In this document: positions 1 through 11,081 of the stretch, piece by piece | Layout of the letters: each line of letters opens with the position of its first letter | Position numbering within the stretch: the first letter of the stretch is position 1 | Source: a virus | Lineage: Duplodnaviria > Heunggongvirae > Uroviricota > Caudoviricetes | Reading direction: 5' to 3' (one strand) | Virus record (IMG/VR): IMGVR_UViG_2534681697_000014 | Coordinates: 1 to 11,081 of that record | DNA length: 11,081 nt | Translations under genes and position numbers: made by a program | The notes under the pieces: generated by a model | What the model was told of the DNA's origin: nothing | The model's input: only the letters and a program-made list of their open reading frames with translations | Databases searched by the model: none

Positions 1-24
1 CGCCTAACCAATAAGGCGCCGGGA

Positions 25-603
25 GTGTCGGGCGCTTCACGCAACGGTACGCGCCGCGCCATTACGCCGGAACATTACCAGCAGGTGATGGAGAAAGCCC
101 GCGCTGAGGATGCGGGGCTGGCTGCGGCGCTGGAGATCGCGCGACTGATGGGGTTACGCTCGCAGGAAACGGTACAGAGTTCACTGTCGCTGAAAACGTG
201 GCTGAAAGCCATTGAGCGCGGGGAAAACCGGCTGAAAGTGATGTTTGGCACCAAAGGTGGGCGTCCCCGCCATACGACAGCTCTGGATACTGGCGCAGTC
301 AGGAAAGCCGTTGAAAAAGCGTTAATTGTAGCAGAACAACACAATGGCAGGCTGATCGACAAGCCTGATCTCAAAATGGCGCTGGAGAGCTGGCACAAAC
401 AGGTCATTAAGGTGGGGCTGAAGGGGGAATTTTCCCCTCACTCCCTGCGCTATGCCTGGGCGCAGGATGCGATCCGCCATTATCTGGCGCAGGGATTCAG
501 CGAAAAGGAGTCACTGGCGCTGACGGCGACGGATCTGGGCCACGGCGACGGTCGTGGGCGCTGGGTGAAACAGGTGTACGGCTACCGCTGGAAGGAGGAA
601 TGA
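25..603 (+). CDS. Small tyrosine site-specific recombinase, FimB/FimE size class (192 aa from GTG at 25; frame is open to position 1, so the start may lie upstream)
   Basis: Translation shows tyrosine-recombinase catalytic boxes: LEIARLMGLRSQE (box I Arg), TKGGRPRH (Lys hairpin), HSLRYAWA (HxLR), LGHGDGRGRWVKQVY (C-terminal Tyr). N-terminus RRAITPEHYQQVMEKA resembles FimE KRRYLTGKEVQAMMQA as recalled from memory. Possible RBS AAGG 8 nt before GTG. Confidence 0.6.
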   Translation: MSGASRNGTRRAITPEHYQQVMEKARAEDAGLAAALEIARLMGLRSQETVQSSLSLKTWLKAIERGENRLKVMFGTKGGRPRHTTALDTGAVRKAVEKALIVAEQHNGRLIDKPDLKMALESWHKQVIKVGLKGEFSPHSLRYAWAQDAIRHYLAQGFSEKESLALTATDLGHGDGRGRWVKQVYGYRWKEE

Positions 604-789
604 CGGATTTCATGAATGGCGCAAAATAGTACGTTACTGCGTAACGACAGCGATTTATCGTACCCTCTGTACCGGATCTGGCGCAGGGGCGAGCGGGTTT
701 GTATTGTGAAAATATCGTTACAGCATGACGAATAAATATCAACAGATCAGATTTCCCTGCTTCACCAATATAGTTTGCCGGAATATTAT

Positions 790-811
790 AGTGATTACCC
801 CTGTAATCACT
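790..811. repeat. 22-bp palindrome AGTGATTAC-CCCT-GTAATCACT (GTGATT-N8-AATCAC)
   Basis: Read directly; 9-bp perfectly complementary arms around a 4-nt centre. Confidence 0.7.
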
Positions 812-1454
812 CGAAATGCTCCCTGGTAATAACAGGTGTTTCAATCGTTTTTACCGATACTACAGGGTTGGGAAAATTTTAAAATGTAAATTCACCGGGG
901 CTCACATTAATTCTGGCACAGGGTTATATCTGAATAATTCTCTCTGTGTTTTTCCGTATCCTGTTATATATATTGTATGGTCTCAGGATGCCTCATGATT
1001 TTATAAAAATGCTGCGACGGTTTTTGATATCATAACCTGCTGCATATAAATTAACAATTTTCGCTGCTTCATGTTATTTTTTTGCACTCTGTGACCGTTA
1101 TTGTGTGGTGAAATGCAATCTGGTGCAGGCAGTCATGGTGTATTTCCGAATGAACTGGTTACGCCAGAAAGGGAAAGGGTTATAAAGGTTAAGGGAGCGA
1201 TAAGGGTAACAGCGCCTGACCGGAAAGGGCCGAAAACCAAGGGCAAGAAACTGGCGCAGTCCTGAATGGATAGAGCGGCGGGACGCTGGCGCAGATAGCA
1301 GATTATCCGGGACGGGGGCAGATTATTTTGTCTTTATATAGCTGGTGCAGTGATGATATGTATCAGGAAGGATTATACGGTATTATAAGGCGCAATTTTG
1401 GGGATGTATTAATTGGTGATTCCGTGGAAACATCGATTATTGATAGCTTTTCAG

Positions 1455-1484
1455 CTTCCGTGATTAACATGTTAATCACGGAAG
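1455..1484. repeat. 30-bp perfect palindrome CTTCCGTGATTAACA|TGTTAATCACGGAAG (GTGATT-N8-AATCAC) in repeat copy A
   Basis: Read directly; the two halves are exact reverse complements. Confidence 0.8.
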
Positions 1485-1673
1485 GTGGCTGTCTATTGAA
1501 AACAGATGAATTGATAGGTTTTCACCTGAATTATTGGAAACCAAATAATTTCAGACTTATATCTATCTGGTATCTGATGTAGTTCTTACAGGCTTCAGAG
1601 TATAGGGTCAGGAGATATTCTGGAGTATTAATTGGCATTTCCGTGAAAATATCACGTATTGATAGCTTTTCAT

Positions 1674-1703
1674 CTTCTGTGATTTGCGGGCAAATCACAG
1701 AAG
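1674..1703. repeat. 30-bp near-perfect palindrome CTTCTGTGATTTGC-GG-GCAAATCACAGAAG (GTGATT-N8-AATCAC) in repeat copy B
   Basis: Read directly; differs from the copy-A palindrome by symmetric (compensatory) substitutions in both arms and a different, still self-complementary, centre. Confidence 0.8.
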
Positions 1704-1890
1704 GTAGTTATCTATCAATAATATATTTATTAATAGGCAATCGCCTGAAAATACTCTACTTGAATAATTTCTGGTACTTACCTATTAATAAGTAGTTCAT
1801 TGATTGGTTTTCACCCAAAATTATTTGGGGCCAAATATTTATAGATGTTTTCCGATTGATAATAACAAAAAAACGGCAATATCTATCAAC

Positions 1891-1928
1891 AAAAAAAAGC
1901 AGATCCCGGTCAATCAGGATCTGCTTTT
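1891..1928. terminator. Bidirectional intrinsic terminator downstream of the P4-type integrase
   Basis: A8 run (1891-1898), 8-bp stem GCAGATCC/GGATCTGC with 10-nt loop (1899-1924), then TTTT (1925-1928); U-tract follows the stem on either strand. About 30 bp past the integrase stop (1959). Confidence 0.6.
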
Positions 1929-1958
1929 CCAGTTTTAATGATTTACGCTATTTCTGAT

Positions 1959-3221
1959 TCAGGCTGCCTTATGCTGCCGCGCATAAATGTACGGCGCGAC
2001 ATACCCCTCGCGGCACACATCCAGATAATCCGACCACCACTGCATCATGGCCTTTCTGGCCTCCAGATGCTCTGCTTTATGCACATATGCCGCCCGCACG
2101 CTGTTGCGCTCCTGGTGGCTCATTTGCCGCTCCACCGTATCGCGTGACCACAGGTCCGACTCCACCAGGGCGCTACAGGCCATTGCCCTGAGTCCATGCC
2201 CACAGACTTCAGTTTTCGTATCATACCCCATCAGACGCAGCGCCCGGTTGGTGGTGTTTTCACTCATTGGCTTGTACGGATTATGGTCGCCGGGAAACAC
2301 CAGATCCAGATGGCCGGAAAGCTCCTGTATCTGTTTCAGAATGGCAATCGCCTGGCGGGAGAGCGGCACGATATGCGGGGTACGCATTTTTGCGCCACGC
2401 CCCGAAAACCGTACTTTATCAATTGCCTCGCGGGTGGCGGGAATGGTCCAGATTTTGTGCCTGAAATCAATCTCGCTCCAGTGGGCGAAACGCAGTTCGC
2501 TGGAACGGATGAACAGATGCAGCGTCAGCACCACCGCCAGCCGGGTTAACTCCCGGCCCTGCTGATAGTCACCGATGCGGCCAAGCAGTTCAGGCAACCG
2601 CTCCAGCGGTAAAGCGGGATAGTGATTCTTTACGGGTGAAGCGACAACGCCATCCAGATGCTGCGCCGGATTGCTTTCGGTAAGCCCCTGCTGAACGGCA
2701 TAGCGCATGATGTTGCTGAGTTGCTGCCGGGTTCGGGACGCGACTTCCAGAAAGCCTTTATCCTCAATAACCCGCAACAAAGCAGTGAAATCCTGCGTTT
2801 TAAGCGTGGCAACGGGCAGATGACCAATCGCCGGGAAGATATGGTTTTCCATACTGGCGAGAATACGGGCGGCATACTCAGCCGACCATTTTTTGTTGGT
2901 TTTGTGCCAGGCCAGCGCCACCGCCTTAAAGCACTTTTCAGGGGAGCAGGCTGCTTTCTCTGCCATGCGCTGCTGCGCCGGGTTGATATTCTGCGCCAGT
3001 AACTTACGGATACCGTCGCGCTGCTGCCTGGCTTCTGCCAGTGAGACCAGCGGATATGCGCCAAGACTGACTCTGGATTCTTTTCCGTTGAAACGATATT
3101 TGAGATACCAGATGCGTGAACCGCTCGGATTGACGAGCAGATACAGACCGTGAGAGCCGGAGAGTTTTACCGGACGGGAAGAGGGTTTTAACTTGCGGAT
3201 TTTAGAATCGTTTAAAGACAT
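1959..3221 (-). CDS. P4-type (tRNA-associated) tyrosine integrase, 420 aa
   Basis: Track ORF 1959..3323 carries a 34-codon in-frame extension; family-typical N-terminus MSLNDSKIRKLKP starts at ATG 3219-3221. Catalytic-domain signatures are present (RSSELR, HGLRAMA, RAAYVHKAEH). Lies 161 bp from the 3' end of tRNA-Asn on the same strand. Confidence 0.9.
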   Translation of the reverse strand: MSLNDSKIRKLKPSSRPVKLSGSHGLYLLVNPSGSRIWYLKYRFNGKESRVSLGAYPLVSLAEARQQRDGIRKLLAQNINPAQQRMAEKAACSPEKCFKAVALAWHKTNKKWSAEYAARILASMENHIFPAIGHLPVATLKTQDFTALLRVIEDKGFLEVASRTRQQLSNIMRYAVQQGLTESNPAQHLDGVVASPVKNHYPALPLERLPELLGRIGDYQQGRELTRLAVVLTLHLFIRSSELRFAHWSEIDFRHKIWTIPATREAIDKVRFSGRGAKMRTPHIVPLSRQAIAILKQIQELSGHLDLVFPGDHNPYKPMSENTTNRALRLMGYDTKTEVCGHGLRAMACSALVESDLWSRDTVERQMSHQERNSVRAAYVHKAEHLEARKAMMQWWSDYLDVCREGYVAPYIYARQHKAA

Positions 3222-3382
3222 TTGAGGGCCACTCCAGAATCGAACCAAACTGCCCCCAGATCTGACCACCAAATTATCCCGATGCGGAGAGAAAACTAGA
3301 TACGCACCGGGAAGGATTTTCACGCTAACTTACTGAATCGTAAACAAATAGAAACGTACAGATAAGCATGAAAACTTGAATT

Positions 3383-3458
3383 TGGCTCCTCTGACTGGAC
3401 TCGAACCAGTGACATACGGATTAACAGTCCGCCGTTCTACCGACTGAACTACAGAGGA
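3383..3458 (-). tRNA. asnT: tRNA-Asn (anticodon GUU), 76 nt
   Basis: Reverse complement reads TCCTCTGTAGTTCAGTCGGTAGAACGGCGGACTGTTAATCCGTATGTCACTGGTTCGAGTCCAGTCAGAGGAGCCA, matching E. coli tRNA-Asn as recalled, with CUGUUAA anticodon loop and encoded CCA. The asnT name (rather than another asn copy) is from position next to mtfA. Confidence 0.95.
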
Positions 3459-3558
3459 ATCGTGTGAACGGGGCGCATATTACTTAGCGGTACCTTGTCT
3501 GTCAACACTAAATTTCATAAGTCATTTCAATTGGTTAATTAATCTGCAAAGTTGTTAA

Positions 3559-4356
3559 TTAATGAACATTCGTCGCCGAAAACGAGTCTGTATCATTAGC
3601 GTGATGCAGTCTCTGCAAAGGATCTTGTTGATAAAATTGGCAGAAACGTTGCCACAATGAAGGGAAACGAGGAGCAAAAAGTTCTGGGGCGCTAAAGAAA
3701 TATTCAGAAAGTACGGCAAAACATTCAGCAGGATCGCTGGCAGCATAAGCATCAATGCTCGCCGCATTCTCGCCAACTAATTCGATTTCTTCCTGAATGT
3801 TGTTCATTGCAGCATGAAGATCGTGTTCCCAGCCAGCAACCTCACGCAACGGAATAAAGGGAACTTCGCTGGCGCGATCGCCGTTACGGGTGTCCAGCTT
3901 ATGAGCGACTTCATGAATAATCAGGTTAAAACCAGAAGCATCAAAAGAATCTTGTATATCCAACCAGTTCAAAACGATAGGCCCTTGCTGCCAGCTCTGA
4001 CCTGACTGAACAATACGTTGGTTATGCACCAGACCGATATCGTCTTCCCATTCATCATCGACCACAAATGGCGCAGGATAAATTAAGACTTCATGAAAAC
4101 CATCCAGCCATTCCAGTCCTAACTCCAGAACGGGTAGGCAAAATAGAAGTGCTATCCGGCAGCTTCTTAATGAATCCAGTTCAAAGCTCTGTAAAGGAAC
4201 AAGCCGCTTTTGCTGTAAAAAACGTTCGGCAAGAGTGACTAATTTGCTTTGTTCCTGTTCCGTCAGACACGTTAAAAGGGGGATCGATAGTGCTTCCTGC
4301 CAGGGAAGGGCAGTTTGATGTGCTGATTCTTGTACTTTCCAGGGCCACTTAATCAT
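3559..4356 (-). CDS. mtfA: MtfA (Mlc titration factor A / YeeI), zinc-dependent peptidase, 265 aa
   Basis: Translation from ATG 4354-4356 begins [23 protein letters not shown] and contains the HEVAHKLD metalloprotease motif; it matches E. coli MtfA as recalled. The track ORF start at 4395 is a 13-codon upstream extension. Confidence 0.9.
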
Positions 4357-4449
4357 CGTTTTGCTCGCAAACTCGTCACTTGAACAAAATTGCACGGACA
4401 GGGACTGTTAAAATGCCAAATTTCTTGGCATCATGGCAACCATCTGAAC

Positions 4450-4539
4450 GGAGAGATGCCGGAGCGGCTGAACGGACCGGTCTCGAAAACCGGAGTGGGG
4501 GCAACTCCACCGGGGGTTCAAATCCCCCTCTCTCCGCCA
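4450..4539 (+). tRNA. serU: tRNA-Ser (anticodon CGA), 90 nt with long variable arm
   Basis: GGAGAGATGCCGGAGCGGCTGAACGGACCGGTCTCGAAAACCGG...GGTTCAAATCCCCCTCTCTCCGCCA; anticodon loop CUCGAAA; encoded CCA. Confidence 0.95.
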
Positions 4540-4566
4540 AAATTCAATCACTTATACATCATTAAG

Positions 4567-5604
4567 TCAGTGACAAAAATCACACTTGGAATTACTTGGA
4601 ATATTTTCAGGTAACGGGACATCAAGTGTCGGTGAAACTTTAACCTTCCTGTCATAGATTAGCACTTGCCCCTCGGTTTTGTGACCAGAGAAAAGTTGCT
4701 TATCCCGACTGCTTCCTTCATAGTCTGAAATTCCTTTCGCCTTCAGATCATGAAAGGTGAAGTCGGTTAAAATACCTGAAATTTTGCCTGCGCGATTTCT
4801 TGCTTCTACCCACATTTCGTTAAAGCCTTTGTACATATATCGGTTGCCGTATTGATTGCTGATTACATAGGCGGATGTTGGTAACTGTTTTGCTTTTTCG
4901 ATCGCCGCCTGTAATCGTGGACTCCATGCTTTTATCTGTTTTTTTCCTGTTTTCCCTTGCTGGATAAAGATCCCGTCGTTTCCAATCTGCTCCCATTTCA
5001 GCGATAACACATCGGAAACCCTCGCTGCACACAGATAGGCAATTTCCATTGCGATAAAAACAGGAAGAGGTGCAACGCTTAATACTGCCTGGTATTCTTT
5101 GTCGGTTACATATCGTTCGCGGTTTTTGGCCTTGAATTTACTTACACCTGCACATGGGTTAGCCTTCACGTACCCTCGCTCATACCCCCAACTGTAAACG
5201 CGGGACATACTGCTTTTTTCATGGTTGGCTTGCGTTTTACTCTGTTCCCCTCTCTTGTCCATGTATCGACGGATGTGTTCTGGTTTTATGGAATCTGCCG
5301 GCACCTTACCGAATACGGCAAGCAACTTTTTTTGATGTTGCAGATAATCTTTTTGTGTTCTTGGACTGAGGTCACTGTAATAGGCGCTGGCGAGGAATTT
5401 TTCCCACAAGCGACCGAATGTCATTGCACGATCGCGATTATTTACAGTTTCCTCATACTTTTTCCATAAAGCAGCTAAACCATCCTTGATGGCGGTTAGT
5501 GTTACAGATTCTCTGGATGTTGGTTTCCATACATAACTATATTTATTTGGGTATACATTTGGAGGTAATTTTTCGTGTTCAGGATTTTTCCTTCGTCTTC
5601 CCAT
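4567..5604 (-). CDS. Lambda-family prophage integrase (tyrosine recombinase), 345 aa
   Basis: 345-aa ORF with a C-terminal catalytic region (FHDLKAKGISD...GHKTEGQVLIYDRK, Tyr nucleophile); start codon overlaps the stop of the upstream xis-like gene at 5604. Confidence 0.85.
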   Translation of the reverse strand: MGRRRKNPEHEKLPPNVYPNKYSYVWKPTSRESVTLTAIKDGLAALWKKYEETVNNRDRAMTFGRLWEKFLASAYYSDLSPRTQKDYLQHQKKLLAVFGKVPADSIKPEHIRRYMDKRGEQSKTQANHEKSSMSRVYSWGYERGYVKANPCAGVSKFKAKNRERYVTDKEYQAVLSVAPLPVFIAMEIAYLCAARVSDVLSLKWEQIGNDGIFIQQGKTGKKQIKAWSPRLQAAIEKAKQLPTSAYVISNQYGNRYMYKGFNEMWVEARNRAGKISGILTDFTFHDLKAKGISDYEGSSRDKQLFSGHKTEGQVLIYDRKVKVSPTLDVPLPENIPSNSKCDFCH

Positions 5605-5807
5605 CAGATCGCACCAAAATTCGGCTCTACCTCGCGTGGTGGTAAAGTTTTATTGCAGGTAAATAGATCCCGGCTGACAATCGGTTTGCCACTACGATTG
5701 GTATAGAACGGAAGCCCGTTTTCCATTAACCATTTTCGCTGGTGGCTTGCATATTTGCAGCCCGTTAATATTAGCAATTCATCTTCGGTTAAAAATAAGC
5801 TGCTCAT
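5604..5807 (-). CDS. Excisionase-like small protein (DUF4224-like), 67 aa
   Basis: Sits immediately upstream of int and is translationally coupled to it (stop/start share base 5604); LTEDELLILTG...WLMENGLPF resembles the DUF4224 family found at the xis position. Family assignment is from memory. Confidence 0.6.
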   Translation of the reverse strand: MSSLFLTEDELLILTGCKYASHQRKWLMENGLPFYTNRSGKPIVSRDLFTCNKTLPPREVEPNFGAI

Positions 5808-5865
5808 AGCTATATCTCATAACCGCCGCTAACTATATACGGTTAGCGGCAATTAGGGTTGAACA

Positions 5866-6210
5866 TTAAAAATCAGCCTGACTCGGGATCAGTTTTTGCC
5901 AGATAGCTGAAACGTATTTTGCTTGGTAACGAGCGTCATCAAGTGCATTATGGCGCTCACCTTCGAATGGAATAGCCGTTCTGGCATCGAAGTCTATGGC
6001 TTTCCCCAGCTCAACGATTGTGCGTACATCGCGATCGTTGTAGTAACGCCACGGGCAGGGGATCCCCTGCCGTTCGTATGAACGGCGCAAAATCGTGTTG
6101 TCGAAGTTGGCTCCATTTCCCCAGACCTGAACAAAAAATTCACCGGAGTTTTCGTCGATAAATTCCCGCAATTGTAACAGTGCATCATCTAACGGGATTT
6201 CATCGGTCAT
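5866..6210 (-). CDS. C-terminal two-thirds of a DEDDh (DnaQ-like) 3'-5' exonuclease domain, 114 aa, separated from its N-terminal part by an in-frame TGA
   Basis: Contains Exo II (WGNGANFD) and Exo III (HNALDDARYQAKY) motifs; ATG at 6208-6210 lies 3 codons after, and in the same frame as, the TGA (6220-6222) that ends the upstream 695-aa ORF. Confidence 0.7.
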   Translation of the reverse strand: MTDEIPLDDALLQLREFIDENSGEFFVQVWGNGANFDNTILRRSYERQGIPCPWRYYNDRDVRTIVELGKAIDFDARTAIPFEGERHNALDDARYQAKYVSAIWQKLIPSQADF

Positions 6211-6219
6211 AATGGCAGA

Positions 6220-8307
6220 TCACGCTTCGCGTGATTGCTTAAGCCACCATTTAATGGTGTCCCGATCAATGACTCCGCCAGCAGTTTCCAGATCGATAGT
6301 CTTACTAAATTCGGGTCCCATATCTCCGGTTTGCGGATCGAAAAATATTGCATCTATTGAGATGATCGGGGCATCAGGATTTTTTCCCATGGTTTCAAGG
6401 TCGATCATTAGATGGTCACACGTCCTGCTGGTGGATGTGATTTCGTGATGACCATTCACCGTAATTAAGGGATCTGCCGTCTCGCCAGTTTTACTATCGC
6501 TGGCGTGGTCCTGAGCGCTGCCAGCATTCTCCTTGTGTGGATGTTCAGCGCCTTCCATTTCCTCCGGATCATTTTCCTGAACTTCAACCTGATTCTCTTC
6601 ATCGAATGTTTTCTGGTATGTTGCGTCGTCCATCACCGCGCCACAATCAGGGCAGTTGCCGCCACCGCTCTGACCGCAGGCGGTGCAGACTTTTTCCGGT
6701 TCCTGTTGCGCTACTGGTTCGGATTGTTTCGTTTCTGGCTCGTTTTGTAACGCATTTGGGCTGTTTTGTTCCGCTTTTTGGTCGTTCCGTTCCGATTCAT
6801 GCTGGTTCTGGTTCACAGAATCGCGAGTCTGGATCCCCTTGACCCATTTCGGATCATTAGGGTCGCTAATCCCCTCAACAAATTCACCACGCGATACAGC
6901 AAGTAACTTATCGGCGTCAGGCTGGCTGATATTGGCTGCCTGCATAATTTTGTTTACTTCGTCAGCGGTGACTTTTACTTGGTTAGCGGAACTCACCTGC
7001 GACTGAGCATCCAGCGACTGCGCGTTCTGGCAATGTTCAGTTGTATCCGGTTCCATTGTTTCAGTTGTTGCCTGTTCACCTGCCATTGCGTCAGATGGTT
7101 GTGGTTTTTCTTCTTCTGTTTCACGCTCAGTAACCACCTCGCGGTTAATTTCTTCCAGGATATCTTTTTCCGGCGTATGCCGGGCAGCTGTGAGAGTTTC
7201 CTTGCTGGGGTTCTCGTGATCAGTTTCCGTCAAATAGGCGTTGATATACCCCTGAAGGCGTCCCGGGTAGTGATAAAATTCAGGGTGTGCGCTTCGGATA
7301 AGTGCAAAAATAGCGGCGCGGGAATAGTCCAGAATACCCGGGGTTGCACGAAGTGCTGCGGACCATTCTTTGAACGGACTTTCTTTTTTCAGGACTACTT
7401 CTTTTGCGCGACGATAAACGCTGCCCGGAATTTCATAAATATTAAAATCCATCGGAAGTGTGGCTGCTGCAATCTCCACATCCAGTGTGTCGAGGGTGTG
7501 TACTAAATTCGGATTGCGATCGGTTTTGTTCCCACCGCCAGCATTAGCACCGGAAGCCGTGCGGGTGATGCGTGAAACACGATTTCCTTTCATCCACTCT
7601 TTTGTCAGCAGACCCCGATCAGTGTAGTCAGCGTCCAGGTATGCTTCGAAAAAAGCAGTTATTAGTCCCAGGTCTGAATTACCAGGATTAGGGAAAACTT
7701 TGTCAGTGTCACGAACCAGTTTGTGGAGGTCGCGAATCTCCAGCGAGTCGAGCAGACTGGTTTTATGCGAAATAGCCAGGGCAGTAACAGCCGGTAGTTC
7801 TTCAGCCCGTGCAATGTGTAATGCCTGGAGTTCGTCGCGTGAAACGTGCGTTACTGGTTTTTCGCTGCCGTGTTGAGCAAGCCAACGAATGGGCAGTTCC
7901 TGACCGGAGACAGGTAGAAGCATGCTCTCCTCAATCTCAGTCATGTCTTCGCCGTTGATGTTGGTATTATCAGTGCTGGCTGATTTGTCCTGAACAGAGG
8001 GGGAAGGGCCGATAAATGTCATTGTGATGCCATCTTTCCCGCCTTTTTCATAGCGGTTGCAGAATTCAGTATCAAACACGCCTTCTGGCGGAAGGTCGTC
8101 AACAACGGGCAAATTGACGCGGACGGGTTTTTTAAAGTCGTCTTCATCATAATCGTTGTCATCCATTGCGGTAATGCAGCGGGAGATTGCAACAGATAAT
8201 TTTTTTGCTGTAGTCCAGTAAAAACCACCTTTAATTCCTAGGCGTTTTCTTACTTTGTCATTTTTTGCTTCGCAATATAGTGCAAATTCTTCTTTATCAG
8301 TGCTCAT
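6220..8307 (-). CDS. Large acidic RecE-N-terminal-like protein (695 aa) whose last 60 residues form the N-terminal part (Exo I motif) of the DEDDh exonuclease domain
   Basis: Long ORF with ATG at 8305-8307; zinc-ribbon [15 protein letters not shown]; acidic low-complexity stretches; C-terminal [25 protein letters not shown] carries the D-x-E Exo I motif. Resemblance to the Rac RecE N-terminal region is from memory only. Confidence 0.75.
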
Positions 8308-8400
8308 TATTGATAAACCTCATCACAGATTTAAGGGTGAACAAATCTCTGCCATTGCTGACATATAAGAATGAAACTGGATATTTATTACGGTGCTGTT

Positions 8401-8592
8401 TTAAAATCCTGCCGGGATTTCGTTATTATCCTGGTGAATAACTTTATCGACCGGATAACAGTTGCCTGGAATTTTCTGTTCGGTTGCTGCTGCCATACAT
8501 TCCTGCATTGTTCTGTGAACACTGACTGCAATATCAACTGGCTCTCCGGAAACAAGAAAAACCGTCAGAATAAGTGCAAATACTGGATTCAT
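8401..8592 (-). CDS. Small hypothetical prophage protein (63 aa) with hydrophobic N-terminus
   Basis: ATG at 8590-8592 overlaps the TGA of the upstream gene (ATGA coupling). Begins MNPVFALILTVFLVSG, a signal-peptide or membrane-anchor-like segment. The longer track ORF (start 8646) is probably an upstream extension. Confidence 0.5.
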   Translation of the reverse strand: MNPVFALILTVFLVSGEPVDIAVSVHRTMQECMAAATEQKIPGNCYPVDKVIHQDNNEIPAGF

Positions 8593-8777
8593 TGTGCACA
8601 TCCTTTTGGCATCAGACGTAAACGGGCCAGCATTGAAACAATGCATACTTTATTTAATAACTCCCGTTCGTGTTTTCTTTTGTTAATGGCCTCTTCAGTA
8701 AATACAGGATTACTGATAGTGACACCAATTTCAAAACAACCTTCAGACGTATTAACGTTTGGTAATAACGTTTTCAT
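8589..8777 (-). CDS. Small hypothetical Cys-containing prophage protein (62 aa)
   Basis: ATG at 8775-8777 preceded by GAGGG at 7-nt spacing; MKTLLPNVNTSEGCFEIGV...CIVSMLARLRLMPKGCAQ. The 97-aa track ORF starting at 8882 is probably an N-terminal over-extension. Confidence 0.5.
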   Translation of the reverse strand: MKTLLPNVNTSEGCFEIGVTISNPVFTEEAINKRKHERELLNKVCIVSMLARLRLMPKGCAQ

Positions 8778-9345
8778 TATCGCGCCCTCAACAATGAGTT
8801 TTGTGATGCGGTGCCTGGTGTCTCCAGGTGACGTTAACCAGTTAACAATTAACGCCGGATACAGAGAATCCACCCATAACACTGTTTTTGGTTTTAACTG
8901 TTCCGCGTGCGCTTAGCCGCATTCACCGCATCACAAAATTCACTTTAAAAAGGGCGGCAGAGCAGTCACGGAGTAAAACTGATACCGCCAAACGTCACCA
9001 GAAAATTGATAACAGAGGGCGTTGCAGCGGGGTTGTCACTTAAGCGTATGGTCAACCTGACAACCCGGTGTCCTCAACGGGGGAAGGAATAATCCCGCCA
9101 TACTTACCGCCGCGCCATTTCGCGGATTGCCACAACCGGAAGCGCACGGTCGACGAAAATTTAACGACAGGCTATCTATGAACCAGCTACCTCGCCGTGC
9201 GCTTTCGCGTTATGGTCTGACTTTTCAGGGAAATATCCTTTCAGTAAACTGTCAGTGCCGGATGCTCACCCGTGTCCGGCGCACGCACTCCACCTCACCC
9301 GTGGAGAACTCCTTAATTACTAACCTTAGCTTTGTTGATTAGCTA

Positions 9346-9564
9346 CTAACGCGGGTATGTAATCATTCTGGCAATGCTTAATGCCGCTGCTTTTTCCAGA
9401 TTGGTGATATCCTGCTCCAGAGCGGACAGATTTTCAGCCTGCTTAGCCCTGGCTTCATTAGCCCATTTCAGATCCTGCGCTGCATTAATTTTCTGGCGCA
9501 TCCACTCATAAAGTTCATCATCGGTATAGTCTGGCGCGATGATGACGGGTTCTCGTTTCTGCAC
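9346..9564 (-). CDS. Hypothetical small prophage protein (72 aa, predicted helical/coiled-coil), GTG start
   Basis: GTG at 9562-9564 preceded by GAGGAA; charged, helix-favouring sequence (ANEARAKQAENLSALEQDITNLEKAAALS). Confidence 0.5.
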   Translation of the reverse strand: MQKREPVIIAPDYTDDELYEWMRQKINAAQDLKWANEARAKQAENLSALEQDITNLEKAAALSIARMITYPR

Positions 9565-9593
9565 GCTGATTCCTCGCGGTGCTGTTTCGCTTA

Positions 9594-9722
9594 TCAGCCG
9601 TTAGATTTTGCCGAACTGGAAAGCGCCTGTTTAAATTCGCTGAAGCTGAGAGCTTCTTCGCCTTCGGCAAGGCCTTCGAAGTATTCTTCGTAAGCCTTTT
9701 CCATGATTGTGTCGAAATCCAT
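9594..9722 (-). CDS. Small acidic hypothetical protein (42 aa), not in the ORF track
   Basis: My translation of the minus strand: MDFDTIMEKAYEEYFEGLAEGEEALSFSEFKQALSSSAKSNG. ATG at 9720-9722 sits 2 nt after the TGA of the upstream 51-aa ORF, with GGTGGG just upstream. Confidence 0.4.
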   Translation of the reverse strand: MDFDTIMEKAYEEYFEGLAEGEEALSFSEFKQALSSSAKSNG

Positions 9723-9723
9723 A

Positions 9724-9879
9724 TCACCCACCTGAATTTCTTTCCAGCCAGCGACGCGCTCCAGATTCGGTTTTAAACGTTTTGCTTTTGGTATACGTCA
9801 TTGCGGTGAAGGTGCCGTCCTGGTTGGGAAACACGCCGTACACCAGAGATTCGTTGTTGCCAAGATCGATAGTATCCAT
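9724..9879 (-). CDS. Small hypothetical prophage protein (51 aa)
   Basis: MDTIDLGNNESLVYGVFPNQDGTFTAMTYTKSKTFKTESGARRWLERNSGG; ATG at 9877-9879 preceded by GAGGT at 4-nt spacing. The 92-aa track ORF (to 10002) extends this frame into the IS66 end and is probably artefactual. Confidence 0.45.
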   Translation of the reverse strand: MDTIDLGNNESLVYGVFPNQDGTFTAMTYTKSKTFKTESGARRWLERNSGG

Positions 9880-10023
9880 GCTGACCTCATTTCCCCTTAA
9901 CGCCGGGGTAGCGGAACAAAAACCTGCTGCATAGTTATTAAGTAAGCGCCCCATCAGCGACGTCTTGTGAAAATTGTCCTGTCTGGCAACAATCGCGCCC
10001 ATCTATATTGATGGACACGAACG

Positions 10024-10698
10024 ATGAATTCCCAGACAACAAAAGATATTCCCTGCTTCCGTTCTTATTTGCCTGATGCCCTGCGTTTAAGATTTGAAGA
10101 TAAACTGACCATCCGGGCCATCGCTCAGCGTCTGGGTCTCAGTCATTCCACAATACATACGCTTTTTCAGCGATTTCTTGCATCCGGTATCGCATGGCCA
10201 TTGCCCGATTCAGTTTCATTCGCTCAACTTGACGCCATCCTTTATGCCAACAGAAAGAAGGAATTAACAGAGCCTCAAATCAGAGAAGGCTCATGGCGAA
10301 AAGAACGGCGAACCAGCTATAGCCGTGAATTTAAGGTCCGTCTGGCTAAGCAGGCGTTACAGCCTGGGGCTGTTGTTGCCCGGATCGCCAGAGAACACGA
10401 TATCAATGATAACCTGCTGTTTAAATGGAAAAGCCAGTACGAGGACGGATTACTGAGCGATGATGACATACAGGAATGCATGCCTGTCCCGGTGGCACTG
10501 ACTGATACGCCGGAGCCGACCAGACCAGTTACAAATCCCTTCTGGCGTAACAAGCATGATGAGCGCCCTGAGGGGGCTCCCGGAAACGTCCCACGGTGCG
10601 AGCTGCATCTTAAATCAGGTGTGGTAAAACTGTTTGACCCTCTCACTCCGGAACTGTTACGGGCGCTAATCCGCGAAATGAAAGGGGGTATCCGATGA
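10024..10698 (+). CDS. tnpA: IS66-family accessory protein TnpA (orf1), 224 aa as called
   Basis: HTH region RTSYSREFKVRLAKQALQPGAVVARIAREHDINDNLLFKWKSQY typical of IS66/IS3 orfA proteins; stop overlaps tnpB start (ATGA at 10695-10698). Longer than the roughly 135 aa I expect for IS66 TnpA, so the true start is uncertain. Confidence 0.65.
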   Translation: MNSQTTKDIPCFRSYLPDALRLRFEDKLTIRAIAQRLGLSHSTIHTLFQRFLASGIAWPLPDSVSFAQLDAILYANRKKELTEPQIREGSWRKERRTSYSREFKVRLAKQALQPGAVVARIAREHDINDNLLFKWKSQYEDGLLSDDDIQECMPVPVALTDTPEPTRPVTNPFWRNKHDERPEGAPGNVPRCELHLKSGVVKLFDPLTPELLRALIREMKGGIR

Positions 10699-11042
10699 TA
10701 ACGCTGCCGACCGGTACCAAAATCTGGATCATCGCTGGCATCACAGATATGCGTTGTGGCTTCAATGGCCTGGCTTCGAAGGTGCAGAACACGCTGAAAG
10801 ATGACCCGTTCTCCGGGCATATCTTCGTCTTCCGGGGCCGCAGTGGCAAAATGGTGAAAATACTGTGGGCCGATCGTGACGGGTTATGCCTGTTCGCCAA
10901 ACGCCTGGAACGGGGCCGCTTCGTCTGGCCGGTGACCCGGGAAGGGAAAGTGCACCTGACGCCAGCTCAGTTATCCATGCTACTGGAGGGGATCGCGTGG
11001 CAACATCCCAAACGGACAGAACGGCCTGGCATCCGGATATAA
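10695..11042 (+). CDS. tnpB: IS66-family accessory protein TnpB (orf2), 115 aa
   Basis: MITLPTGTKIWIIAGITDMRCGFNGLA...KILWADRDGLCLFAKRLE is the characteristic IS66 Orf2 sequence and length; AGGGGG RBS 8 nt upstream. Confidence 0.9.
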   Translation: MITLPTGTKIWIIAGITDMRCGFNGLASKVQNTLKDDPFSGHIFVFRGRSGKMVKILWADRDGLCLFAKRLERGRFVWPVTREGKVHLTPAQLSMLLEGIAWQHPKRTERPGIRI

Positions 11043-11068
11043 CCCGTGATAAAACAAGGGAATGAACA

Positions 11069-11081
11069 ATGAACTCCCCGA
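11069..11081 (+). CDS. tnpC: Probable 5' end of the IS66-family transposase TnpC (first 4 codons only)
   Basis: ATG at 11069 with AAGGGA 7 nt upstream, 26 bp after the tnpB stop; position fits the third IS66 ORF. Too short to verify. Confidence 0.3.

Follow-up and report, generated by a model that had tools for sequence, protein, structure and literature searches.

Different integrase-bearing elements at the tRNA genes asnT and serU, on either side of mtfA, in Shigella boydii

Layout of the locus

The stretch of DNA analysed here (11,081 nucleotides, henceforth referred to as the window) is the whole of contig AERN01000058.1, taken in reverse orientation, from the assembly GCA_000193915.2, which is tabulated as Shigella boydii ATCC 9905 (PMC6397287); the contig was recognised by the MtfA protein that it encodes, an exact match to that of the window. 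We searched all of it for tRNA genes with ARAGORN and with the Rfam tRNA model. ARAGORN found exactly two, both of them confirmed by Rfam: a tRNA-Asn(GTT) gene, asnT (3383–3458, minus strand, 72.6 bits), and a tRNA-Ser(CGA) gene, serU (4450–4539, plus strand, 57 bits). The two sites are separated by the core gene mtfA (3559–4356, minus strand), coding for the DgsA/Mlc anti-repressor, an M90 peptidase. Its product was assigned by Pfam to Peptidase_M90 (E 5e-58) and by NCBIfam to the equivalog 'DgsA anti-repressor MtfA', where it reaches 535.7 bits, the cut-off being 400. A sequence-only reading of the window had already placed tRNA-Asn and tRNA-Ser on either side of mtfA, about 1 kb apart, and its coordinates proved to be exact. 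It had also called the arrangement convergent/divergent, of which only the second half stands, the two tRNA genes being divergent and not convergent.

The 3' end of asnT (3383) points left, towards an integrase ORF at 1959–3221 (minus strand), and the 3' end of serU (4539) points right, towards another integrase ORF at 4567–5604 (minus strand). A different integrase-bearing element therefore lies on the 3' side of each tRNA gene, just as that reading had it. Homology between the window and genomes with empty sites breaks off at 3378 (left) and at about 4555 (right), in both cases within a few bases of the tRNA 3' end, which indicates that this layout is not a chance pattern. The complete genome CP026875.1 shows the same layout. 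Given that the window is an entire contig, the far ends of both the island on the left and the prophage on the right lie outside it. The boundaries of the two elements were taken from a relative, E. coli strain 190, and not from the window's own strain; strain 190 is the best overall match to the window (96.6% over positions 1–9941).

The island at asnT

The sequence-only reading had described the left element as a P4-type island, and its integrase bears out this label. The gene (1959–3221, minus strand) is intact and codes for 420 aa, a length also annotated in the source contig. The protein has the DUF4102 architecture, with the Pfam domains Arm-DNA-bind_3/DUF4102 (PF13356, E 1.2e-23), Phage_int_M (PF22022, E 7e-27) and Phage_integrase (PF00589, E 1.4e-16). 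It is 49.5% identical to the integrase of phage P4 over 98% of its length (E 2e-123) and 69% identical to the integrase of the yersiniabactin island (HPI), and in the alignment of the three proteins the residues R239, H342-x-x-R345 and Y379 are invariant. It fits the P4 cluster of the IntSXT subgroup, whose insertions lie downstream of tRNA genes (PMC8138268). With its start at 3221 and the 3' end of asnT at 3383, the integrase gene immediately adjoins an intact tRNA gene.

Leftward from this integrase gene, the order is a strong terminator-like hairpin, a 1.35-kb AT-rich non-coding stretch and a second tyrosine-recombinase-like gene. The hairpin, detected by a terminator scan (1893–1930, minus strand), has a 16-bp stem and a T run, resembles an intrinsic terminator and comes directly after the integrase stop codon. 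The second recombinase-like gene (25–603, plus strand) is cut by the contig end, which leaves its 3' part (192 codons) in the window; it matches Pfam Integrase_1 (PF12835, E 1.6e-58), and full-length homologues of 294 aa occupy the equivalent position in relatives. As cargo, the island of strain 190 codes for an Rhs core protein, downstream of which lie small ORFs, and no satellite replication or capsid-redirecting genes are annotated in it. In other strains, the module made up of the integrase gene, the spacer and the Integrase_1-type gene adjoins another, identical asn tRNA gene beside yeeO, which implies that the island can use any asn tRNA gene. In O121:H19, an integrative element of 9.5 kb has been reported at asnU (PMC8767318).

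The attachment-site core of the island (3378–3398) consists of the last 16 nt of tRNA-Asn (3383–3398) and five flanking bases, GAATT, as delimited by the break of homology, the repeat in strain 190 and a four-way alignment. Homology to genomes with empty sites ends exactly at the edge of this core, at 3378, and the unoccupied asnT target is represented by the K-12-like yeeJ-asnT junction. In strain 190 the island measures 10.7 kb and lies between 16–21 bp repeats of the tRNA-Asn 3' end, being bounded by TTGGCTCCTCTGACTGG at 12749–12765 of L001 and by the tRNA end at 23421–23437; the K-12 flank towards yeeJ comes directly after the distal 17-nt copy. The far-end asnT repeat is probably present in the window's own strain as well.

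The asnT island also contains an unannotated AT-rich array of repeats and palindromes (1406–1830). It holds two direct repeats of ~125 nt (1406–1530 and 1625–1749), each of them one long palindrome, and the inner arms of the two palindromes differ between the copies through compensated changes. The array further includes a third hairpin and, in five iteron-like copies, ATTGATAGNTTTTCA. It folds on both strands, with z-scores from -4.3 to -8.5, and is kept in 413 of 5,426 E. coli genomes, where all of the inspected loci (7/7) were the same module adjoining an asn tRNA gene. A permissive-threshold Rfam scan of the non-coding sequence at 550–2000 gave sub-threshold chance matches only and no RNA family for the palindromes. 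The covariation of the palindromes among seven relatives is sparse and amounts to one central compensated change and two uncompensated changes, the latter in three sequences. Phage P4 has two 120-bp repeats near its integrase gene, and we considered whether the array units might be like the crr of P4; by eye they show no resemblance to its iterons (TGAACAGTGTGAACA / TTCACC), and the analogy is one of layout only. The array might conceivably be an undescribed cis-acting site, either a target for recombination or inversion by the second recombinase or a replication origin (a crr-like region) of a degenerate P4-like satellite, a suggestion that we regard as doubtful.

The prophage at serU

The integrase of the right element (4567–5604, minus strand, 345 aa) is of the lambda type. 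It aligns over its full length with the structures of lambda Int (lambda residues 1–338, 313 being also given; E 8.5e-13), from the arm-binding N-terminus (MGRRR...LPPN) through the catalytic domain, and is 58.7% identical to the integrase of Salmonella phage ST64B and 47.7% identical to that of mEp390. The complete catalytic set R-K-H-R-H-Y is absent from it: Lys288 stands at the position of lambda Arg311 (HDLK for HxxR), the other five residues being conserved. Such a change would otherwise cast doubt on activity. This Lys is, however, invariant in four aligned sequences, and since the ST64B and mEp390 integrases, which are among them, have it too, it is a subfamily trait rather than a lesion. 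An HxxK integrase of this sort could be taken for a member of the published 'IntKX' subgroup, a name that designates simple recombinases of ICEs and is unrelated (PMC8138268).

Next to the integrase gene comes an excisionase gene (5604–5807, minus strand), recognised by Pfam DUF4224 and by PHROG 1266 'excisionase' (E 3e-21). It is followed by a gene for a RecE-like exonuclease VIII / 3'-5' exonuclease (5866–8307, minus strand; Pfam Exonuc_VIII and Rv2179c-like), which is inactivated by a single in-frame stop at 6220–6222 that splits it into two ORFs of 695 and 114 aa in the same frame; relatives have the intact 813-aa gene. Beyond lies an early-left prophage gene block (8401–9879, minus strand), assembled from Rfam, the gene calls of the source contig with Pfam, and the annotation of relatives. 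All of its members are on the minus strand: DUF1482/ydfD (8401–8592), dicB (8589–8777), the DicF sRNA (8952–9003, 76.7 bits in Rfam), ydfC (9346–9564), ydfB (9594–9722) and a DUF1391 gene (about 9724–9879). The window thus presents the lambdoid early-left order after int-xis (exo, DUF1482, dicB, DicF, ydfC, ydfB), and this gene content, together with the alignment to lambda Int, upholds the earlier identification of the right element as a lambdoid prophage.

The prophage is interrupted by the left end of an IS66-family insertion sequence (9942–11081, plus strand; Pfam HTH_Tnp_1 and TnpB_IS66), with tnpA at 10024–10698 and tnpB at 10695–11042, both on the plus strand. The element opens with GTAAGCG at 9942, the homology of relatives ends at 9941, and the contig ends inside the element. 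An exact-match scan of genome contigs for this IS66/prophage junction gave no hit. In strain 190 the prophage continues with genes for a LexA-family (CI-like) repressor, a Cro/CI-family regulator, replication, an antitermination protein, a holin and a lysozyme, then with late genes for a terminase, an HK97-type head and a lambda-like tail, and its far end lies directly ahead of yodB, at a distance of about 42.6 kb from serU. Judging from the nonsense mutation in the exonuclease gene and the IS66 insertion, the prophage of the window is probably defective, while its integrase and excisionase genes look still intact; the related genome CP026875.1 has a split int.

The prophage junctions and a chimeric tRNA-Ser

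At the far end of the prophage in strain 190 we found a partial serU copy of 61–62 nt (22370–22430 of L002), beyond which the sequence is the K-12 flank leading to yodB. The sequence-only reading had proposed a search for direct repeats of the tRNA 3' ends to delimit the two elements, and in this relative such repeats were recovered for both. The 3' segment of serU reads GGTCTCGAAAACCGGAGTAGGGGCAACTCTACC...CCGCCA. At positions 4497 and 4508 the resident serU of the window and of strain 190 reads G and C, against A and T in K-12, and the distal copy in strain 190 is the K-12 allele (A...T). With G...C in the resident gene and the K-12 allele in the distal copy, the resident tRNA is seen to be chimeric, its 3' part being phage-derived. 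Within the long variable arm, G4497 forms a base pair with C4508, and the cloverleaf fold is the same for the two alleles. This G:C versus A:T pair provides a handy marker for a phage-derived tRNA 3' half.

Aligning the window, the empty site and the far end of the prophage, we found that positions 4478–4496 do not differ between attL, attR and the empty site. The crossover of the prophage must fall within these 19 nt, i.e. in the anticodon stem-loop. Two free phages support this. In ST64B the attP, downstream of the integrase gene, contains the same 3' segment of tRNA-Ser, with its start at the same tRNA position, and the annotated attP of mEp390 contains a 3' segment of tRNA-Leu(UAA) that likewise starts at the anticodon loop. 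A far-end serU repeat is likely to exist in the window's own strain too.

Occupancy of the two sites across E. coli genomes

To see how often each site is occupied we turned to 5,426 complete RefSeq E. coli genomes; the counts cover integrases detectable by megablast only and are uncorrected for phylogeny. With 5,417 of the genomes containing it, the asnT-mtfA-serU block is core. Both sites are empty, with a contiguous yeeJ-asnT-mtfA-serU-yodB arrangement as in K-12, in 2,013 genomes (37%). A P4-type integrase is joined to asnT-mtfA in 2,112 (39%), the serU lambdoid integrase of the window is joined to mtfA-serU in 1,136 (21%), and 491 genomes (9%) have both integrases joined. The remainder, about 12% of the 5,426, fall outside all counted classes and presumably hold other elements. 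Most of the P4-type integrase matches at asnT are ~85% identical, and the single example that was inspected is the HPI. The isolate AF57 has the HPI at asnT and the window's prophage family at serU.

Neither integrase is a core gene, let alone a universally conserved one, and the strain-to-strain variation that the sequence-only reading expected of this locus is evident from these counts. Signs of decay in this lineage, namely the nonsense codon in the exonuclease gene, the IS66 insertion and the split int of CP026875.1, could be taken to mean that the integrases are domesticated or fixed remnants and not strain-variable insertions. The population counts refute this, and we give it practically no credence: 61% of the genomes are without a P4-type integrase at asnT, 79% are without the window's integrase at serU, and clean empty sites exist.

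Another reading is that of a single composite mobile element that extends from the P4-type integrase to the lambdoid prophage and moves as one unit, carrying mtfA with it. Both integrases occur together in two GenBank 'phage' records, ON470583.1 and ON470580.1, and the one inspected, ON470583.1, also has both tRNA genes and mtfA. Such an element is nevertheless very improbable. Of the 5,417 genomes with the asnT-mtfA-serU block, 2,013 have neither element, the left integrase occurs alone in about 1,621 genomes and the right one alone in about 645, and the tRNA-derived repeats form separate pairs, one for each element. Moreover, ON470583.1 is labelled 'partial genome' and begins within the P4-type integrase gene, and the names of the records end in 'R5' and 'R7'; ON470583.1 has the look of a predicted prophage region that was extended too far, past attL.

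Finally, the two elements could be functionally coupled, the P4-type island being for instance a satellite of the neighbouring prophage, with double occupancy favoured by selection. Integrases of the P4 type are characteristic of phage satellites, a gene for an 'ash family protein' is present in a relative of the island, and co-occupancy lies slightly over the expectation for independent sites (0.389 x 0.209 x 5,426, or about 442 genomes, against the 491 observed). The excess is, however, merely about 1.1-fold in counts uncorrected for phylogeny, and co-occupancy is thus about what independent occupancy predicts. At asnT the occupant most often seems to be a different element, as the ~85% identical integrases and the HPI found in the one inspected example suggest, the island of strain 190 has Rhs toxin genes in place of annotated satellite functions, and the P4-type integrase is a pseudogene in many relatives. 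We therefore consider coupling highly unlikely.

Two independent integrations into neighbouring tRNA genes very probably explain the locus. Two unrelated integrative elements would have been acquired independently, each by way of its own integrase, which would have directed site-specific recombination with the 3' part of a tRNA gene, and the two target genes would merely happen to sit about 1 kb apart with mtfA between them. For the small P4-type island, the DUF4102-type integrase would recombine inside the terminal ~16 nt of tRNA-Asn and could take any one of the asn tRNA genes, which are identical, as its target. The lambda-like prophage would rely on its lambda-type integrase and excisionase and on an attP that includes a copy of the tRNA-Ser(CGA) 3' segment of ~62 nt; a crossover in the anticodon stem-loop would rebuild a functional tRNA from phage DNA and shift the previous 3' part to the distal prophage end.

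Comparison with known systems

It is established that tRNA 3' ends serve as integration sites, that the HPI occurs at asnT and that serU receives islands and prophages. The locus is in this sense a textbook case of tRNA genes as landing sites and matters little beyond annotation, where asnT-mtfA-serU can be treated as a variable pair of hotspots in E. coli and Shigella. The exact att cores (3378–3398 for the island, 4478–4496 onward for the prophage) permit clean boundary calls, and they explain how a prophage prediction can overshoot mtfA into the adjacent island, as appears to be the case for ON470583.1.

The closest parallel is found in the uropathogenic strains UPEC 536 and CFT073, for which PAI-serU (with TcpC) and the HPI at asnT have been tabulated about 1.6 kb apart (PMC7545054). 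In those strains, too, both of these tRNA genes are occupied, on either side of mtfA, and the HPI integrase sits next to asnT in the same position and orientation as the P4-type integrase of the window. The cargo differs at both sites. At asnT, the island of the window and its relative has the second recombinase-like gene and (in the relative) an Rhs toxin, whereas the HPI has the ybt/irp cluster; at serU, the window has a lambda-like prophage, whereas UPEC 536 and CFT073 have a 22-kb TcpC island.

As a prophage site, serU is recurrent and variable in STEC O145:H28 and O121:H19 (PMC7067040, PMC8767318). Salmonella phage ST64B is comparable in its attachment site, given that its attP holds the 3' ~62 nt of tRNA-Ser(CGA) with the same start in the anticodon stem and in the same orientation to the integrase gene. 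Unlike ST64B and the STEC serU prophages, the prophage of the window has an IS66-family interruption and a nonsense mutation in its exonuclease gene; its late region lies outside the window. For the island, the reference is phage P4, which has the same DUF4102 integrase architecture and integrates into a tRNA gene through a short core of about 16–20 bp at its extreme 3' end. The target of P4 is leuX, in contrast to the asn tRNA genes used by the island, and the part of the island that lies in the window shows none of the P4 genes for replication or helper exploitation. Double occupancy of asnT and serU is therefore already known in kind, with different cargo, from UPEC 536 and CFT073, and what is lineage-specific here is only the combination of a small Rhs-type island and an IS-disrupted lambdoid prophage in a strain of Shigella boydii.

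The tRNA-Asn island and its integrase

Between the Integrase_1-type gene (25-603, plus strand) and the P4-type integrase gene (1959-3221, minus strand) of the island at tRNA-Asn lies an unannotated, AT-rich array of repeats and palindromes (1406-1830). It contains two direct repeats of about 125 nt (1406-1530 and 1625-1749; 74% identity), both of them long palindromes, whose inner arms read CTTCCGTGATTAACA/TGTTAATCACGGAAG in one repeat and CTTCTGTGATTTGC/GCAAATCACAGAAG in its partner, and a third hairpin at 1714-1804; the sequence ATTGATAGNTTTTCA occurs five times across the array. We found this array in 413 of 5,426 complete E. coli genomes and, in all seven loci inspected, it was located beside an asn tRNA, within the same island module.

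The adjacent P4-type integrase gene is a pseudogene, with an internal stop or a frameshift, in most of the relatives inspected; strain 2015C-3107 and the window both have it intact. The loci concerned are L001 (21998-23260; E. coli strain 190, the best overall match), L015 (3104-4365), L016 (3102-4364), L017 (3032-4294), L018 (4265-5527) and L004 (9136-10273).

The int-serU junction and a 'phage' record reaching both integrase genes

A GenBank 'phage' record, ON470583.1 ('Escherichia phage vB_EcoS-689R5, partial genome'; L013, locus 4001-7659), includes both tRNA-Ser and tRNA-Asn together with mtfA, a host gene, besides the lambdoid integrase gene and a portion of the P4-type one. Apparently, this record is a predicted prophage region that ran past attL into the adjacent island. 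Both integrases of the window are also matched by ON470580.1.

At the prophage side of the junction, the gap between the lambda-type integrase gene (4567-5604, minus strand) and serU is only 28 bp, and the C-terminus of the integrase is unlike that of its relatives (345 aa, against 336-341 aa). Within the 3' end of this ORF there is a tandem repeat of ACTTGGAATT (1.9 copies, 4584-4602), 45-63 bp from the 3' end of tRNA-Ser, which could represent integrase arm-type binding sites of attL. In one relative (L005, 6634-7601; GCA_014021235.1) two additional genes separate the lambdoid integrase gene from serU; one codes for a protein of 155 aa, the other for a Peptidase_M78 (ImmA/IrrE-like) protein.

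The same integrase has a lysine (K288, codon at about 4741-4743) aligned with the catalytic Arg311 of lambda Int, i.e. HDLK where lambda Int has HELR. The motif FHDLKAKGISD is invariant in the integrases of the free phages ST64B (Salmonella) and mEp390, and Lys288 is therefore a trait of the subfamily, not a lesion.

Early-left genes of the prophage

The RecE-like exonuclease gene (5866-8307, minus strand) carries one in-frame nonsense codon (6220-6222), which leaves two ORFs (695 and 114 aa); in relatives the gene is unbroken (813 aa). An IS66-family element (9942-11081) lies between the early-left genes and the immunity region. It begins at 9942 with GTAAGCG, some 60 bp upstream of the DUF1391 gene, and the contig ends within it. 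At 224 aa its TnpA is unusually long, and the protein has an additional N-terminal HTH_23 domain. The antisense sRNA DicF (8952-9003, minus strand; Rfam RF00039, 76.7 bits) adjoins dicB, an arrangement also found in Qin, a prophage of K-12.
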